Shown: positions 33,109 through 46,281 of the stretch, one piece after another
Numbering within the stretch: position 1 is the first letter of the stretch
Layout of the letters: every line of letters begins with the position of its first letter
Notes under the pieces: model-generated
Told to the model about the DNA's origin: nothing
The model's input: only the letters and a program-made list of their open reading frames with translations
The model's database searches: none
Sequence record: DRR378314_424
Length of the DNA: 64,000 nucleotides
Strand: one strand, 5' to 3'
Translations under genes and position numbers: made by a program

Positions 33109-33716
33109 CGAAGATCCCGACACCCGCAGACGTACTGGACTATTGGTTGGGGAACACGCCAAACTCCGTCGACGGACTTGAAGAAAAGCACAAGCTCTGG
33201 TTTGGAAAATCTGACGTAACGGATGCCGAAATCCGGGAGAAGTTCCTGCACCTGCTAGAGGACGCCTCTCACCTGCCCTTCGCGGATGACTGGGCTGCCG
33301 AAGGCCCGCGTGGACGCCTTGCCGCCATCATCGTGCTTGATCAGTTCAGCCGCAACCTTTTCCGGAATGACGCGCGGGCGTTTCATCAGGATTCGCTGGC
33401 GCTTCGTCTGTGCAAGGACGGGCTGGCACTGAAGGAGGACGAAAAGCTCAGCGATACTGAACGCGTGTTCTTCTATCTGCCGCTGGAGCATTCGGAGGTT
33501 CTGGAGGACCAGAAGCAAAGCGTCGCTGTATTCAAGAAACTGGCCGAAGATGCCCGGCCTGACTATCGCAGCTTTGCTGAGAACACATACGACTACGCTA
33601 TCCAGCATTTGAAAGTGATTGAGAAATTCGGGCGCTTCCCGCACCGCAATGCTGCGCTCGGCCGGGAGACGACACCTGAAGAGGCCGAATGGCTGGCCGA
33701 AGGCGGCGGGTTCTAG
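33105..33716 (+). CDS. DUF924 family protein
   Basis: [35 protein letters not shown] overlap with ubiG. Confidence 0.93.
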
Positions 33717-35083
33717 TCCAGCATCTCAGGCCCGCGCGGGTCGAGGCTTTTGCTGATGTCCTGCTGCATGGCTCGGGTCAGCGTGTAGCGCGATGCGACC
33801 AGTGCTGCGAGCCCGTACAGGATGAATGGCAGGACACAGAAAACCAGCAACAGGCCGTGCAAAGCGTCTGGTGAATTGACTGTTCCCGGCTTGAACCCGG
33901 CGACCCGGCCGAGAACGAAATATCCGATGCCGAACGCAAGGCTGCTGCCGATCTTGTAGGCACTGGTCAGCAGGGAATAATAAATGCCGGCCCGGTTCTC
34001 CCCGGAACGCGCAGCCTGATACTCCACCACATCCGCCGCCATGGAGCGCGCGATCACGACAGGGGCGCTGAAAGCCGCACCATTGACGAGCGCACCGACA
34101 AGCAACGCGCCAAAACCGCCCCCTGAACGACCGGCAATATAGTAAATGATGTAACTGGCCATCCCCATGATGACGGCGCAGAGGAAGGCTGTGTGCTTCT
34201 CCGTCATCGCCGAGAATTTCAGCCATAGCGGAAGCGCCGCGACCGCCGTCGAGAAGAAGATCATGAGGATGACGCTGGCCATGGAATCCGACAGGCCGAA
34301 CACGTATTCCGCAACGAACAGATAGTTTGATGCGGTGATGGCCACAGCCGTTCCCACCAGCAATTCCATCGAGAGGACGACACCGAGAAACCTGTTTCTC
34401 AGGGCCGCGATCATGGCCTTGAGGTCAAACTTCATGGCTTCGCCCCGGTCGCCCCGCATCGGATTGTCGGGAACGAATGTGCACGACAGGAAGGCGACAA
34501 TCGGCAACGAGATGAGCAAGGCCCACCCCATCACGGCCACTTGTCCGAACCGGTCGACTTCAAAACCCGACACCGCCAGGATTGCAGGGACGGCCAGCAG
34601 GGCCAGCATGGAGACGATGCTGATCACCTCCGCCCAGGTGAAGAAGCGCGAACGGTCGTCATAATCTGTTGCAATGGCCGGAACCCAGGCGGATCGCGCC
34701 GTCTGCAAGAGGGTGAACCCGATATAGAACAGGATCATCCACACCACGAAGTAGGCCGGCCCTGCCCCCCGTTCCGGCATATAGATGAAGTAGGTCGCGA
34801 TCCCCAATAGTGGCACGCTGAGCACGATCCAGTGGCGCACGCGTCCCCACGGGCTGCGATAGCGGTCCACCACAAAGCCCATGATCGGATCGGTCGTGAT
34901 GTCCCAGAAGCGGAGCACCATGAACAGGAATCCTGTCAGCTCCAGCCCCAGCCCCACCTCGTTCGCATAGAGCGGCGCGAGATAGACGGCCAAGGGCAAT
35001 CCCACCCCTGCCAGCGGTATGCTGAGCGAGGAGAAAGCAAGCACTCTCGGTAAGGACAGGCGCGGGCCACGTGCGTCAGTCAT
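33713..35083 (-). CDS. MFS transporter (GPH/MelB-like)
   Basis: About 12 TM; RFWDITTDPIMG..DRYRSPWGR. Confidence 0.9.
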   Translation of the reverse strand: MTDARGPRLSLPRVLAFSSLSIPLAGVGLPLAVYLAPLYANEVGLGLELTGFLFMVLRFWDITTDPIMGFVVDRYRSPWGRVRHWIVLSVPLLGIATYFIYMPERGAGPAYFVVWMILFYIGFTLLQTARSAWVPAIATDYDDRSRFFTWAEVISIVSMLALLAVPAILAVSGFEVDRFGQVAVMGWALLISLPIVAFLSCTFVPDNPMRGDRGEAMKFDLKAMIAALRNRFLGVVLSMELLVGTAVAITASNYLFVAEYVFGLSDSMASVILMIFFSTAVAALPLWLKFSAMTEKHTAFLCAVIMGMASYIIYYIAGRSGGGFGALLVGALVNGAAFSAPVVIARSMAADVVEYQAARSGENRAGIYYSLLTSAYKIGSSLAFGIGYFVLGRVAGFKPGTVNSPDALHGLLLVFCVLPFILYGLAALVASRYTLTRAMQQDISKSLDPRGPEMLD

Positions 35084-43064: not shown

Positions 43065-43122
43065 TTGAATGGAACTTTCCCCGTTCTTACGTGCTGAACA
43101 AGAGAGCAAAAAGGAGCCCCTC

Positions 43123-43587
43123 ATGCCTGTAGACATCGGTCTGAACGACGACGCCCGAAACACATCCGCTGACGCCCTGCGCGTCCTGCTGGCGGAGACA
43201 TATGCATTGTACTCCAAGACGCACGGCTACCACTGGAACGTGACCGGCCCACGCTTCAACAGCCTGCACACCATGTTCGAGACACAATATAATGAGCTGT
43301 GGCTGGCGCTGGACGAAATCGCTGAACGCATCCGCGCGCTCGGCCATTTTGCCCCAGCTTCTGCCAGCGAGATGGTCGAACCAGCCACGATCAAGCCGGA
43401 TAATGGCATTCCGGATGCCGACACGATGGTCGAAAACCTGGTGAAAGGCCATGAAGCGGTCAGCCGCGCAGCGAAAGCCGGTTTGAAGATCGCAGAAGAT
43501 AATGGCGACGCTGTAACGGCCGATCTGATGACGCAGCGCGCCGCCATCTCGGAGAAGACCGCCTGGATGCTGCGCGCCAATCTCTAG
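43123..43587 (+). CDS. dps: Dps family DNA-protecting ferritin-like protein
   Basis: KTHGYHWNVTGPRFNSLH, DEIAERIRALG, EKTAWML; SD AAGGAG. Confidence 0.97.
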   Translation: MPVDIGLNDDARNTSADALRVLLAETYALYSKTHGYHWNVTGPRFNSLHTMFETQYNELWLALDEIAERIRALGHFAPASASEMVEPATIKPDNGIPDADTMVENLVKGHEAVSRAAKAGLKIAEDNGDAVTADLMTQRAAISEKTAWMLRANL

Positions 43588-43632
43588 GGAATCCGCGCCT
43601 CCGGCGCATCCTGTATATTGCACTGCACAACA

Positions 43633-43683
43633 AGTGCCGCGCTTCATGGGCTTGACGGTCCCGCTGAGGCGCGGCACTCTTTC
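43633..43683 (+). terminator. Long hairpin terminator after dps
   Basis: AGTGCCGCGCTTCA...TGAGGCGCGGCACT then CTTT. Confidence 0.65.
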
Positions 43684-43739
43684 ATTTGTGTAATGAATGG
43701 GTCAGCAAGAGCCCACCGGAACAACCCCGGACTGCGCGC

Positions 43740-43855
43740 AAAAAAAGGCCCGGCAGCGAGTTAACGCGCCGGGCTGTAAAGTATCGGGTCCCGTAGGGGG
43801 GAGGAAACGCCCAATCGGAGGAAGGATTGGGTTAATGCCCGGGACCCTTGGCATG
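43740..43855 (-). ncRNA. Candidate trans-acting sRNA with anti-SD motifs (AbcR/MmgR-like)
   Basis: Nested stems GGGTCCCG/CGGGACCC and CCCAATC/GATTGGG exposing CUUCCUCC and UUUCCUCCC; GCCCGGC/GCCGGGC terminator plus U7; TTGAAA-N16-TATCTA promoter; 5' end estimated. Confidence 0.75.
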
Positions 43856-43907
43856 CGTGTTAGATAAACACTCCAGCCCTGTTTTCAACCTACGAGACAG
43901 CAAAGCT

Positions 43908-43927
43908 TTCATGCAATTCTGCATGAA
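43908..43927. promoter_or_regulatory. Perfect palindrome, candidate activator site of the sRNA promoter
   Basis: TTCATGCA-ATTC-TGCATGAA about 20 bp upstream of the -35. Confidence 0.65.
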
Positions 43928-43941
43928 TGTCGCATTTCTGA

Positions 43942-44850
43942 CTAATTCTGACGCATAGCAGGACGCCGCAGGATTTCGGTCTCTGCGGTGATGAAATCCC
44001 GGAACGCCGCAATCCGCTTGGAACGGCGCAAATCACTCGGATAGATGAAGTAAAGATCGAAGATCGGGCCGACCGTTTCCGGCAGCACTTTCACAAGGCG
44101 CGGCATTGTCCCGGCCATGTAATCCGGCACATCCGCAATCCCCAGACCAGCATCGACCGCGCGCAACATGGCGAACACATTGTTCACTTTCAGCGCGGCC
44201 TGCCGTGGCGGGCTGTCATCACGACCTACCCGGCAGGCAAAGCTCATCACATCCAGCATGGAGGTTTCGTCGCCATAGGCGATGATCCGGTGATTATCCA
44301 GATCCTGCGGCGTGCGGGGCATCCCATAGGCTTTGAGATATTCCGGCGAGGCATAAAGGTTCGTCGCAACTGTGCCCAGCTTGCGCTGGATAAGGTCCGC
44401 CTTGTCTGCGGCCCACAGGCGGATGGCGCATTCGGCCTCCAGCTTCAGCAAATCATATTCGCGGCTGTCATCAAGACGAAGGTCCAGGTTCATATCCGGA
44501 TGCTTGCGCATGAAGCCACCAAGGCGCGGCACCAGCCAGGTTGAGCCGAACGCCACTGGCGCGGCTACGATCAATTCGCCCTGCGGGGTTTCCTGCTGGT
44601 CCTTCAGCAACGTATTCGCCGATTGCGCGGCGGTCGCCATTTCCATGGTCGAGCGGAACAGGGTGTGGCCGCTATCGGTCAGCACCAGGCCGCGCGCATG
44701 CCGCTGGAACAGGGACACGCCCAGCGCCTCTTCCAGCGCCGCGATCTGGCGTGAGACAGCCGACTGCGATATGCCCAGCCGCTCGCCCGCAGATGTCAGG
44801 CTGCCCGCTTCGGCCGCCGCGTGGAAAGATTTCAGTTTACCCCAATCCAT
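43942..44850 (-). CDS. LysR-type regulator, LsrB/VtlR-like
   Basis: MDWGKLKSFHAAAEAGS..SQSAVSRQI..LFQRHARGLVLT; ADLIQRKL; YFIYPSDLRRSKRIAAFRDF. Confidence 0.9.
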   Translation of the reverse strand: MDWGKLKSFHAAAEAGSLTSAGERLGISQSAVSRQIAALEEALGVSLFQRHARGLVLTDSGHTLFRSTMEMATAAQSANTLLKDQQETPQGELIVAAPVAFGSTWLVPRLGGFMRKHPDMNLDLRLDDSREYDLLKLEAECAIRLWAADKADLIQRKLGTVATNLYASPEYLKAYGMPRTPQDLDNHRIIAYGDETSMLDVMSFACRVGRDDSPPRQAALKVNNVFAMLRAVDAGLGIADVPDYMAGTMPRLVKVLPETVGPIFDLYFIYPSDLRRSKRIAAFRDFITAETEILRRPAMRQN

Positions 44851-45100: not shown

Positions 45101-45742
45101 ATGCCACGACTGAAACAGGCGGGGCGCGAAGCGGAAAATCCGTTCGCAAACCGGATTTTTGACATCCTGTTCGGCGAACGGGACCCGATTGCGGAGCCTG
45201 GAACCGAGACCGGAACGCCCGGGAACTGGTGGACTGTTTTCAACATCGTGCCGGATGCATTCAAGCACACAACTGAAGGGTTTCAGTTTTACCGGTCAAA
45301 AAATCGGAAGCTGGATCCGAAACTGCGTGAACTCGGACAGACCCGCGCAGGCTTTGCCGTTGGCTCACAGTTTGTCTTTTCCCAGCATTGCAAGGCCAGC
45401 CGCGACGTCGGCCTCACCGAAGACCAGATCGCCGCCATACCTCATTGGCAGGTGGCATCCTGCTTCAGCCCGCTGGAGCGCGCAGTTCTCGCCTATACGG
45501 ACGGACTTGTCCTGCAGCGCGGCCGCATCCCGGATGGCGTGTTCGATGCGCTGAAGTCCGGGCTGTCGGATGAGGAAATTCTCGAACTCACCTACATCAC
45601 CTGCACCTATATGATGCACGCGATCATGAGCCGCGCACTGAAGCTGGAATATGATGATGTGGATGAGCGTATTGTTGAGATAGCCGCACCAAAAGATGCG
45701 AACACGGATGTCATGTCGATGGTCGACAAGGGAGGAAACTGA
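45101..45742 (+). CDS. Carboxymuconolactone decarboxylase/AhpD-like family protein
   Basis: LDPKLREL, FVFSQH, FSPLERAVLAYTD, LSDEEILEL; SD GGAGG. Confidence 0.85.
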   Translation: MPRLKQAGREAENPFANRIFDILFGERDPIAEPGTETGTPGNWWTVFNIVPDAFKHTTEGFQFYRSKNRKLDPKLRELGQTRAGFAVGSQFVFSQHCKASRDVGLTEDQIAAIPHWQVASCFSPLERAVLAYTDGLVLQRGRIPDGVFDALKSGLSDEEILELTYITCTYMMHAIMSRALKLEYDDVDERIVEIAAPKDANTDVMSMVDKGGN

Positions 45743-45744
45743 AC

Positions 45745-46281
45745 ATGGCCTATCATCATCTCGCCCTCGCCGCGAAAGACATGAAAGCCACGCACGCATT
45801 CTATGAAGGCATCATGGGATTTGAACTGGTAAAGGTTGAAGTTGCTCCCATCATGACCGGAGGCTGGGGCAAGCATTTCTTTTACCGCATGGATGGCGAT
45901 GACAGCCGGTTTATCGCCTTCTGGGAACTTCATGACACAGAGGGCAGCGAAGATTATGTGTATGACATCAACGCCGCCGCCAAACTGCCGCCGGGCACGA
46001 ACCATTATTCCTTTTCCGTTGACTCGAAACAGGAGCTGGAAGACTGGAAACAGAAATGGCTCGCAGCCGGTCTGGACGTATTCGAAATCGACCATAATTG
46101 GTGCCATTCGATTTATACCAGAGACCCAAACGGAAACTCTGTCGAATTTTGCCTGACCACAAGAACGTTCACCGAGACCGACAGGCAGCGCGCGCTCGAC
46201 GCACTTTCGGAAACAGAGTTCACCCCCTCCCCGGCCCCTGCCTTCATGCAATTATGGAATGCGAAAAAGGTAGACAGCTGA
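45745..46281 (+). CDS. VOC/glyoxalase family protein
   Basis: YHHLALAAKDM..FY, NHYSF, SIYTRDPNGNSVEF. Confidence 0.9.
   Translation: MAYHHLALAAKDMKATHAFYEGIMGFELVKVEVAPIMTGGWGKHFFYRMDGDDSRFIAFWELHDTEGSEDYVYDINAAAKLPPGTNHYSFSVDSKQELEDWKQKWLAAGLDVFEIDHNWCHSIYTRDPNGNSVEFCLTTRTFTETDRQRALDALSETEFTPSPAPAFMQLWNAKKVDS

Follow-up and report, generated by a model that had tools for sequence, protein, structure and literature searches.

Direct activation of small RNAs (sRNAs) that mask Shine-Dalgarno (SD) sequences by the LysR-type regulator LsrB/VtlR has been shown in print for AbcR1, VrsA, and NfeR1, and this circuit has so far been studied for virulence or symbiosis in Brucella, Agrobacterium, and Sinorhizobium. 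The AbcR RNAs repress the messenger RNAs (mRNAs) of ABC transport proteins at the ribosome-binding site; pairing with the ribosome-binding site and a block of translation are described for AbcR1, AbcR2, and NfeR1, the last of which works through anti-SD seeds. A DNA box bound by LsrB/VtlR has been published for Brucella and Agrobacterium in a report that also presents linkage to trxB as a hallmark of lsrB/vtlR (PMC7486931), and in the abcR1 promoter of Sinorhizobium meliloti this box is placed at -61 to -49 (PMC8844928). A different origin has been published for SorX of Rhodobacter sphaeroides, which is processed from the 3' untranslated region (3'UTR) of the cenR (RSP_0847) mRNA and not made from its own promoter. 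Here we describe an sRNA gene at 43740-43854 on the minus strand of a 64,000-nucleotide (nt) stretch of DNA from record DRR378314_424 (hereafter the window), whose host is a marine Hyphomonas (Hyphomonadaceae, Caulobacterales). The sRNA gene lies directly 3' of a LysR-type gene which, by its closest matches, is the ortholog of LsrB/VtlR, and we consider it likely that it encodes a trans-acting RNA of ~115 nt that is under LsrB/VtlR-type control, blocks ribosome-binding sites, and stands in the place of AbcR1.

A structured small RNA gene on the minus strand

The elements of the locus are given below, with upstream distances counted from the predicted transcription start (+1).

43740-43854, minus strand: sRNA of ~115 nt, beginning at the predicted +1 (A 43854) and ending with the U7 run
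43854-43850 with 43839-43835, minus strand: P1, 5' hairpin AUGCC/GGCAU, by covariation
43847-43840 with 43793-43786, minus strand: P2, outer stem GGGUCCCG/CGGGACCC, by covariation and RNAalifold
43831-43825 with 43816-43810, minus strand: P3, hairpin CCCAAUC/GAUUGGG, by covariation and RNAalifold
43824-43817, minus strand: anti-SD seed 1, the P3 loop CUUCCUCC, conserved
43807-43796, minus strand: anti-SD seed 2, the unpaired junction UUUCCUCCCCCC, conserved
43740-43774, minus strand: intrinsic terminator, a GC stem with one bulge followed by U7, by covariation and RNAalifold
43861-43888, minus strand: sigma-70-type promoter, TTGAAA (43888-43883), a 16-nt spacer, and TATCTA (43866-43861)
43902-43914, minus strand: 13-mer GCAT-N3-AG-N3-T resembling the LsrB/VtlR box, at -60 to -48, with 1 mismatch to the published box
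43908-43927, minus strand: putative operator, a 20-nt palindrome TTCATGCA-N4-TGCATGAA whose core ATGCA-N4-TGCAT begins at -70
43942-44850, minus strand: LysR-type regulator gene of 302 amino acids, LsrB/VtlR ortholog by Pfam and PDB match
43069-43587, plus strand: dps, convergent with the sRNA

An earlier note on this DNA, made from the letters alone, had read a palindrome, a promoter, an outer stem, an inner hairpin, two seeds, and a terminator in the 354-nt gap between dps and the LysR stop codon (43587 to 43942), and all of these, including the gap itself, were confirmed on the minus strand where it had put them. The sRNA starts 88 nt past the LysR stop codon on the same strand. Neither a reading of the minus strand nor a generic scan revealed a further terminator between the stop codon and the sRNA, and the terminator at 43740-43774 probably also ends the LysR transcript. 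Folding of a 122-nt stretch gave -48 kcal/mol, against -36.7 ± 3.4 for shuffled sequences (z -3.39), with none of 200 shuffles as good.

That this is a real gene, beyond what chance would produce, is decided by its conservation and covariation in relatives. The block conserved in BLASTN matches runs from the base equal to 43854 to the T-run and co-varies as RNA, bearing out the proposal of a discrete RNA gene on the minus strand. We used two alignments, A1 with 26 sequences (23 distinct) and A3 with 99 aligned matches (94 distinct), and scored 30 pairs in four helices. In A1, all of the 690 cells were paired (690/690, 100%) with compensatory changes at 6 pairs; none of 500 shuffles matched the observed values on four of five measures, and 270 of 500 did so on the fifth. 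In A3, 97.8% of cells were paired and 23 of the 30 pairs showed compensatory changes, with 0/500 shuffles matching on any of the five measures and only 30-47% of cells paired in slid controls. By helix, paired cells and compensatory pairs in A3 amounted to 98.4% and 7/8 for P2, 98.8% and 4/7 for P3, and 99.1% and 8/10 for the terminator, the three elements that RNAalifold also predicted unaided. The seeds are conserved along with the stems, as the earlier note would have it: the UCCUCC of the P3 loop is near-invariant in A3, and GUUUCCUCCC of seed 2 is invariant in 26/26 sequences of A1 and kept across A3. These data establish a structured sRNA gene at 43740-43854.

The fold first proposed for this RNA stood in its outer stem, hairpin, and terminator, all of which co-vary, but it had overlooked the fourth helix, P1. 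This helix is paired in 92.7% of cells among the 94 distinct sequences, with compensatory changes at four of its five pairs (26 cells change from A-U to G-C, and 25 from C-G to U-A). P1 tolerates G-U wobbles, which favors RNA pairing over a DNA palindrome, and it is absent from the structure of our covariance model, yet paired in relatives. Because base 1 co-varies with its P1 partner, position 43854 lies within the RNA. The 5' arm of P2 sits inside the P1 loop, so that the two helices either interlock as an H-type pseudoknot or exclude one another as alternative folds; while the helices are seen by covariation, the pseudoknot is a likely arrangement rather than an observed one. If formed, the pseudoknot would lack a second loop; its first loop would span 2 nt, and its third, a long one, would hold P3 and seed 2.

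The earlier statement that the locus holds no plausible open reading frame (ORF) requires qualification, as a 50-codon frame opens at ATG 43854; it holds in that this frame is unconserved among the 94 distinct orthologs. We therefore weighed the reading that the RNA serves as a leaderless message encoding a small protein. The ATG coincides exactly with the predicted +1, and the first codon is ATG or GTG in 77/94 distinct orthologs. However, it is neither in the other 17/94, in-frame stops occur within the RNA in 30/94, and net length differences are spread 36/34/29 across residues modulo 3 (first 88 columns, 99 aligned rows). Translations diverge past each indel, and substitutions are pairwise compensatory as in RNA helices. 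Given the stops, the frame-blind indels, and the compensatory substitutions, we rejected a leaderless small-protein gene as hardly credible. A riboswitch or leader was likewise ruled out, because the minus strand downstream holds nothing but the convergent dps.

The regulator gene and its linkage to the sRNA

The protein encoded upstream of the sRNA has the Pfam domains HTH_1 and LysR_substrate and matches chain A of PDB 9HH1, described as the cryo-electron microscopy structure of Agrobacterium tumefaciens LsrB (PMC11975290), in a full-length alignment (residues 1-290) with E 5.7e-72; no other LysR-type regulator in the PDB scores better than 3.9e-27. Identity to 9hh1_A is ~42% by hand count (123 midline identities over 290 positions). 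In the reciprocal direction, a trxB-linked LysR from another locus (L071) searched against the nearest genome (G001) returned the sRNA-linked gene at 6.4e-93, with the next match at 5.2e-41. A class-wide search gave one strong match in 249/401 alphaproteobacterial genomes, a count that includes one genome flagged unpublished (G382) on which none of our conclusions rests, and identity ranged from 43 to 52% among the matches listed. At 22 of 29 class-level loci, these being the best loci outside the nearest genome, trxB (TIGR01292 above cut-off) lay directly upstream on the same strand. Within the Caulobacterales, the ortholog was present in 91/151 genomes, distributed over families f1 (30/31), f3 (30/30), f4 (1/1), and f5 (30/30), and was not found in f2 (0/30) or f6 (0/29) at E up to 1e-60. 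The 9HH1 match, the reciprocal best hit, and the trxB linkage thus sustain the earlier description of this gene as LsrB/VtlR-like and, judged from sequence, make it an ortholog of LsrB/VtlR. On the same grounds, a 2025 paper that confines LsrB to the Rhizobiales (PMC11975290) is contradicted by the presence of the ortholog in 249/401 sampled genomes of the Alphaproteobacteria, among them members of four of the six families of Caulobacterales.

The four cysteines of 9HH1 fall in our alignment at 144, 236, 244, and 273, as described in PMC11975290, which assigns redox roles in A. tumefaciens LsrB to Cys144 and Cys273. Cys141 of the Hyphomonas protein aligns with Cys144, and Cys273, Cys236, and Cys244 are replaced by Ile, Val, and Asp, respectively. 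As the redox residue Cys273 is Ile here, the input signal may differ.

The sRNA itself has a narrower range. BLASTN with 43735-43935 found the element in 25/25 genomes of the same genus and in 0/16 genomes from other families of the order. A covariance model built from A1 (R1) matched the 64-kb window at the sRNA site and nowhere else (126.8 bits), gave strong matches in 30/31 Hyphomonadaceae genomes (genera g1 11/11, g12 17/17, g13 1/1, g14 1/1), and gave only weak matches elsewhere in the order. Within the family, the sRNA is absent from G154 alone, a genome that is 100% complete and is missing the LysR gene too. A scan of named genomes with a core 19-mer pointed to Hyphomonas, Henriciella, and Hyphomonadaceae records, and R1 confirmed 77 of the 80 fetched loci; the three others, labelled Candidimonas, Rhodopirellula, and Grimontia, were unconfirmed by R1 and were set aside as chance matches. 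At 55 of 56 fetched sRNA loci, which include some genomes twice, the LysR gene lies ~95 nt upstream on the same strand, the exception being a contig end, and the linkage is kept in a locus of another family at a protein identity of 60%.

In genus g14, genome G046 carries two tandem sRNA copies 3' of the LysR ortholog (64% identity; L239, G046:C4:31800-34300). The copies lie at ~33372-33484 and ~33650-33762, ~280 nt apart, each with its own ATGCA-N4-TGCAT palindrome, and both have an extended hairpin in place of the P3 loop seed.

Such constant attachment to the LysR gene would also be expected if the RNA acted in cis at the 3' end of the LysR transcript, stabilizing or terminating it, or if it bound and titrated a protein, instead of pairing with other mRNAs. 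The pseudoknot-like 5' domain is more elaborate than pairing alone requires and the terminator is probably shared with the LysR gene, both of which lean toward such an element. Nevertheless, the most conserved parts of the RNA are not helices but two unpaired C/U-rich stretches, RNAs known to act in trans, of the alpha-r8/MmgR and AbcR types, have the same seeds, and the tandem duplication in G046 suits a gene rather than a 3' end. We consequently regard a cis-acting or protein-binding element as quite improbable and a trans-acting sRNA as the likely product of the locus.

Promoter, putative operator, and predicted transcript start

Upstream regions were compared in 96 distinct relatives (99 distinct regions minus the three chance loci). 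The TTG of the -35 element (-34 to -32) was kept at 94, 91, and 82%, and the TAT.TA of the -10 element at 68, 90, 80, 89, and 78%. The exact palindrome core ATGCA-N4-TGCAT occurred in 58/96 promoters, beginning at -70 in 52 and at -71 in 6; the remaining palindromes were near-matches, with a consensus of 70-83% per position. The exact LsrB/VtlR box GCAT-N3-TG-N3-T was found in 44/96 relatives, in 43 of them at -60. With the sRNA directly 3' of the LysR gene, the AbcR-like synteny claimed for this locus was upheld. Many relatives have an extra GCAT at -39 to -36, beside the -35 element. LysR-type activators use a two-site layout, which the GCAT at this position resembles. The promoter fits the consensus CTTGAC-N17-CTATAT published for alphaproteobacteria (PMC8844928), and the palindrome and box conserved among relatives match the published LsrB/VtlR sites in sequence and position, with one mismatch in the box of the window.

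A genome-wide scan for the palindrome, which the earlier note had put forward, did recover ATGCA-N4-TGCAT five times in G001 and three times each in G008 and G015, but mostly inside coding frames, and it failed as a regulon marker. Only one further intergenic site was common to two genomes. This palindrome, ATGCAAGATTGCAT, lies between divergent frames (L224, G008:C4:68366-68379; G001:C62:123602-123615) and is possibly a second site at which this regulator acts as on an operator.

Expression was assessed on assembled contigs from public RNA libraries, which amount to a weak hint. In a marine metatranscriptome (X3), a 405-nt contig with a depth of 64.5 and 7 differences covers 43450-43854, and it stops without a loose end precisely at the predicted +1. 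For the LysR gene, the contig of this library has a depth of 13.9, and no X3 contig covers 43855-44251, a gap that counts as no more than a hint. In two other libraries, low-depth contigs run from the LysR 3' end into the sRNA (X1, 43688-44116, depth 6.6; X12, 43794-43962, depth 2.4). The contig pattern fits an independent start together with some read-through and proves neither. Given the conservation boundary, the covariation of base 1, and the end of one RNA contig, we place the start near A 43854; transcription would begin at this base or within one base of it.

These same contigs bear on whether the sRNA has a promoter of its own or arises by processing of the LysR mRNA within its 3'UTR, in the way that SorX arises from the cenR (RSP_0847) mRNA. 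In favor of processing, the stretch between the LysR stop at 43942 and the sRNA lacks a terminator, X1 and X12 join the LysR 3' end to the sRNA, and SorX, itself derived from a 3'UTR, has look-alikes 3' of the LsrB ortholog in other genomes. On the other hand, -35 TTG and -10 TAT.TA are conserved at fixed spacing while the stretch up to the stop codon is variable, conservation sets in sharply at 43854, and the first base there co-varies with its P1 partner. Further, the X3 contig ends at 43854 with a depth well above that of the LysR contig and no contig between, and the second tandem copy in G046 has its own palindrome and promoter-like hexamers. An sRNA made solely by processing is thus unlikely, although an own promoter and 3'UTR processing could coexist, and we favor transcription from the conserved promoter.

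Relation to known families, candidate targets, and a wider module

At the gathering score, no Rfam family was found in the whole window. With relaxed thresholds over 43600-44000, the best match was suhB/MmgR (RF00519) at 22.3 bits (E 0.019; cut-off 41), in an alignment that covers GGGCGUUUCCUCCC, the A/U-rich spacer, and the terminator. Of the two comparisons that the earlier note had in mind, suhB therefore came out best, though sub-threshold, and ar15 (AbcR) not at all. The likeness to an MmgR seed that it had seen was borne out: a UUUCCUCCC-type single-stranded seed after a short hairpin, an alpha-r8 trait, is present in the sRNA, and a 13-nt core, GGCGUUUCCUCCC, is identical in the sRNA and in the canonical alpha-r8 of G001. 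Like MmgR/alpha-r8, the sRNA has a hairpin-GGCGUUUCCUCCC core, and in both an A/U-rich spacer leads from this core to a terminator; unlike it, the sRNA is 115 nt rather than 77 nt long, being extended at the 5' end by P1 and P2 and carrying the 3' arm of P2 as an insertion.

Canonical alpha-r8 scores above cut-off in 79/101 genomes of the order. The copy in G001 (G001:C56:52868-52940, 50.7 bits) is separate from the LysR-linked sRNA, and its 601-nt locus (L238, G001:C56:52600-53200) contains neither the palindrome nor an LsrB box. In other genomes of the order, the 12 canonical suhB loci with the highest scores were all without the LysR gene, and weak R1 matches in other families coincide with canonical suhB loci (e.g. 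in G036, G040, G121, G101, and G108). The sRNA is thus a gene separate from alpha-r8, with an alpha-r8-like 3' core, a 5' extension, and a position and promoter like those of AbcR1.

Like AbcR1 and AbcR2 (alpha-r15; Agrobacterium, Sinorhizobium, Brucella), the sRNA lies directly 3' of lsrB/vtlR on the same strand, has a length of ~110-115 nt and an intrinsic terminator, and exposes one anti-SD seed in the loop of a 5'-proximal hairpin and another in a single-stranded stretch; at about -60, where the AbcR1 promoter has the LsrB/VtlR box, the window has a box-like site with 1 mismatch and 43/96 relatives have the exact box. Even a tandem pair is seen, in the one genus represented by G046. Unlike the AbcR RNAs, its seeds are CUUCCUCC and UUUCCUCCCCCC rather than the CUCCUCCC and UUCCCCUC published for S. 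meliloti, the extra helices P1 and P2 enclose them, there is no trxB gene upstream and no ArsR gene downstream, and the host belongs to the Caulobacterales, not the Rhizobiales. Searches with ar15 gave matches in 0/101 genomes of the order and 0/151 of the class, to which we give little weight because 14 control genomes were also blank; five further large genomes yielded no usable positive control.

NfeR1 (alpha-r14, RF02344) and VrsA resemble the circuit proposed here in that LsrB/VtlR is described as activating both from a site located ahead of a sigma-70 promoter; they differ in not lying beside lsrB. The similarity of the sRNA to ar14 is 16.1 bits against a cut-off of 58.8. SorX (RF02784) is likewise a short anti-SD-type sRNA just 3' of a transcription-factor gene, but its core CUCCCAGACGUGAAGCCUCCCUGUU is unlike that of the sRNA, and the SorX model was not among 12 matches at E up to 10 over 43600-44000. 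In keeping with the earlier supposition, we found no prior description of this sRNA, or of sRNAs in Hyphomonas, in a literature search with few subscription journals. The sRNA family is new to Rfam and fills the AbcR1 position outside the Rhizobiales, while the kind of circuit is already well known.

We propose the following course of events. The LsrB/VtlR ortholog encoded upstream would bind the palindrome and box (-70 to -48) and activate the sigma-70 promoter. The resulting RNA would fold into a compact 5' domain in which P1 is interlocked with P2, with the P3 loop presenting CUUCCUCC and the junction presenting UUUCCUCCCCCC, the latter kept single-stranded between P3 and the P2 3' arm, and the terminator and U tail would follow. 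By analogy with AbcR1/2, NfeR1, and MmgR, the seeds would anneal to ribosome-binding sites rich in GGAGG on target mRNAs and prevent their translation, probably with the help of Hfq. The same seed would in this way be placed under a second, LsrB-type input, beside an alpha-r8/MmgR copy with a different promoter.

As to targets, the complement of a 10-mer of seed 2 has 7 non-self sites in G001, and one of the matches at a ribosome-binding site precedes a TonB-dependent receptor gene (Plug domain; L230, G001:C1:93879-96888). A 17-nt block of its leader, GGCCCGAGGGGAGGAAA, is invariant in 6/6 Hyphomonas genomes (L230, L260-L264), the remaining leader being variable; this block could form 10 bp with seed 2 and also complements four bases in the 3' arm of P2.

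Several results count against an LsrB/VtlR-controlled sRNA that acts on ribosome-binding sites. Just 2/7 of the G001 sites fall at a ribosome-binding site, in a scan that is a weak stand-in for target prediction in the genome of the window itself; the TonB-dependent receptor leader is a candidate target by predicted pairing only, and these sites would be equally open to pairing with the alpha-r8 copy. At the locus, trxB is absent from the 16 neighboring ORFs scanned (33713-54841), with a divergent CMD/AhpD-like gene instead, and the regulator lacks Cys273. The box in the window has A where the published box has T, and the palindrome core taken alone is insignificant in the 64-kb window (1 occurrence against 0.18 expected, with at least one in 18/100 shuffles). 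A generic consensus scan, whose rules demand T as the final base of the second hexamer, called neither the promoter nor the terminator of the sRNA, and ar15 (RF02345; gathering score 40 bits) had no match over 43600-44000 at E up to 10. Finally, contigs cannot prove transcript ends, the stop at 43854 was seen in one study only, and X1 and X12 run across it, possibly from read-through of the LysR gene or from DNA carry-over.

Beyond the Hyphomonadaceae, an sRNA-like unit with CCUCC-type motifs and then a terminator was recognized by eye 3' of the LsrB ortholog at 15/29 class-level loci; R1 gave weak matches at 9/29, all downstream and on the same strand. The SorX model matched at 8 loci (L073, L074, L083, L089, L092, L093, L095, L097) at E up to 0.01 with 31-47 bits, L093 alone exceeding the cut-off (47.0 against 46.6). 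These matches sit 150-350 nt after the LysR ortholog, with trxB directly upstream at 5/8, and the eight loci have the core ACGUCUCCCAGACGUGAAGCCUCCCUGUU in common. SorX may accordingly be a member of an LsrB-linked sRNA group whose regulator gene was lost in R. sphaeroides. Further Caulobacterales loci also have an sRNA-like unit (6/6 in f5 and 4/13 in f3), several with a TGCA-N4-TGCA palindrome in front. These observations lead us to suggest, tentatively and as somewhat less than an even chance, that an LsrB-type regulator followed by an anti-SD sRNA under its activation is an ancestral alphaproteobacterial module rather than a peculiarity of the Rhizobiales, and that AbcR, the SorX-like and Caulobacterales RNAs, and perhaps alpha-r8/MmgR descend from one ancient sRNA that carried such a seed. 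If so, the ancestral sRNA would have stayed tied to its regulator gene while its sequence drifted past the reach of current family models, and the Hyphomonadaceae version would have gained a pseudoknotted 5' domain that may gate the seeds or protect the 5' end.

The likely LsrB/VtlR-to-sRNA circuit in Hyphomonas would extend this type of control to free-living marine Caulobacterales. The family, undetected by any Rfam model and with strong covariation and a likely pseudoknot, is ready for curation. The presence of GUUUCCUCCC under two promoters in one genome offers a simple system for input diversification of sibling sRNAs, and a regulator that has neither trxB linkage nor Cys273 gives a comparative handle on LsrB sensing.

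Some further features of the neighborhood are recorded here. A long hairpin and T-rich stretch at 43637-43699 on the plus strand, ~50 nt past the dps stop, is probably the dps terminator; Rfam searches of 43637-43699 returned only sub-threshold microRNA matches, which are meaningless. The region upstream of the LysR gene (45101-46281, plus strand) holds a CMD/AhpD-like gene, divergent from it, together with a gene of the glyoxalase family, a pair not seen at the loci of close relatives. Stress-type genes thus flank the regulator in place of trxB, and dps was found at 22 of the 56 fetched loci; it is speculation on our part that the dps and CMD/AhpD-like neighbors hint at oxidative or iron stress.

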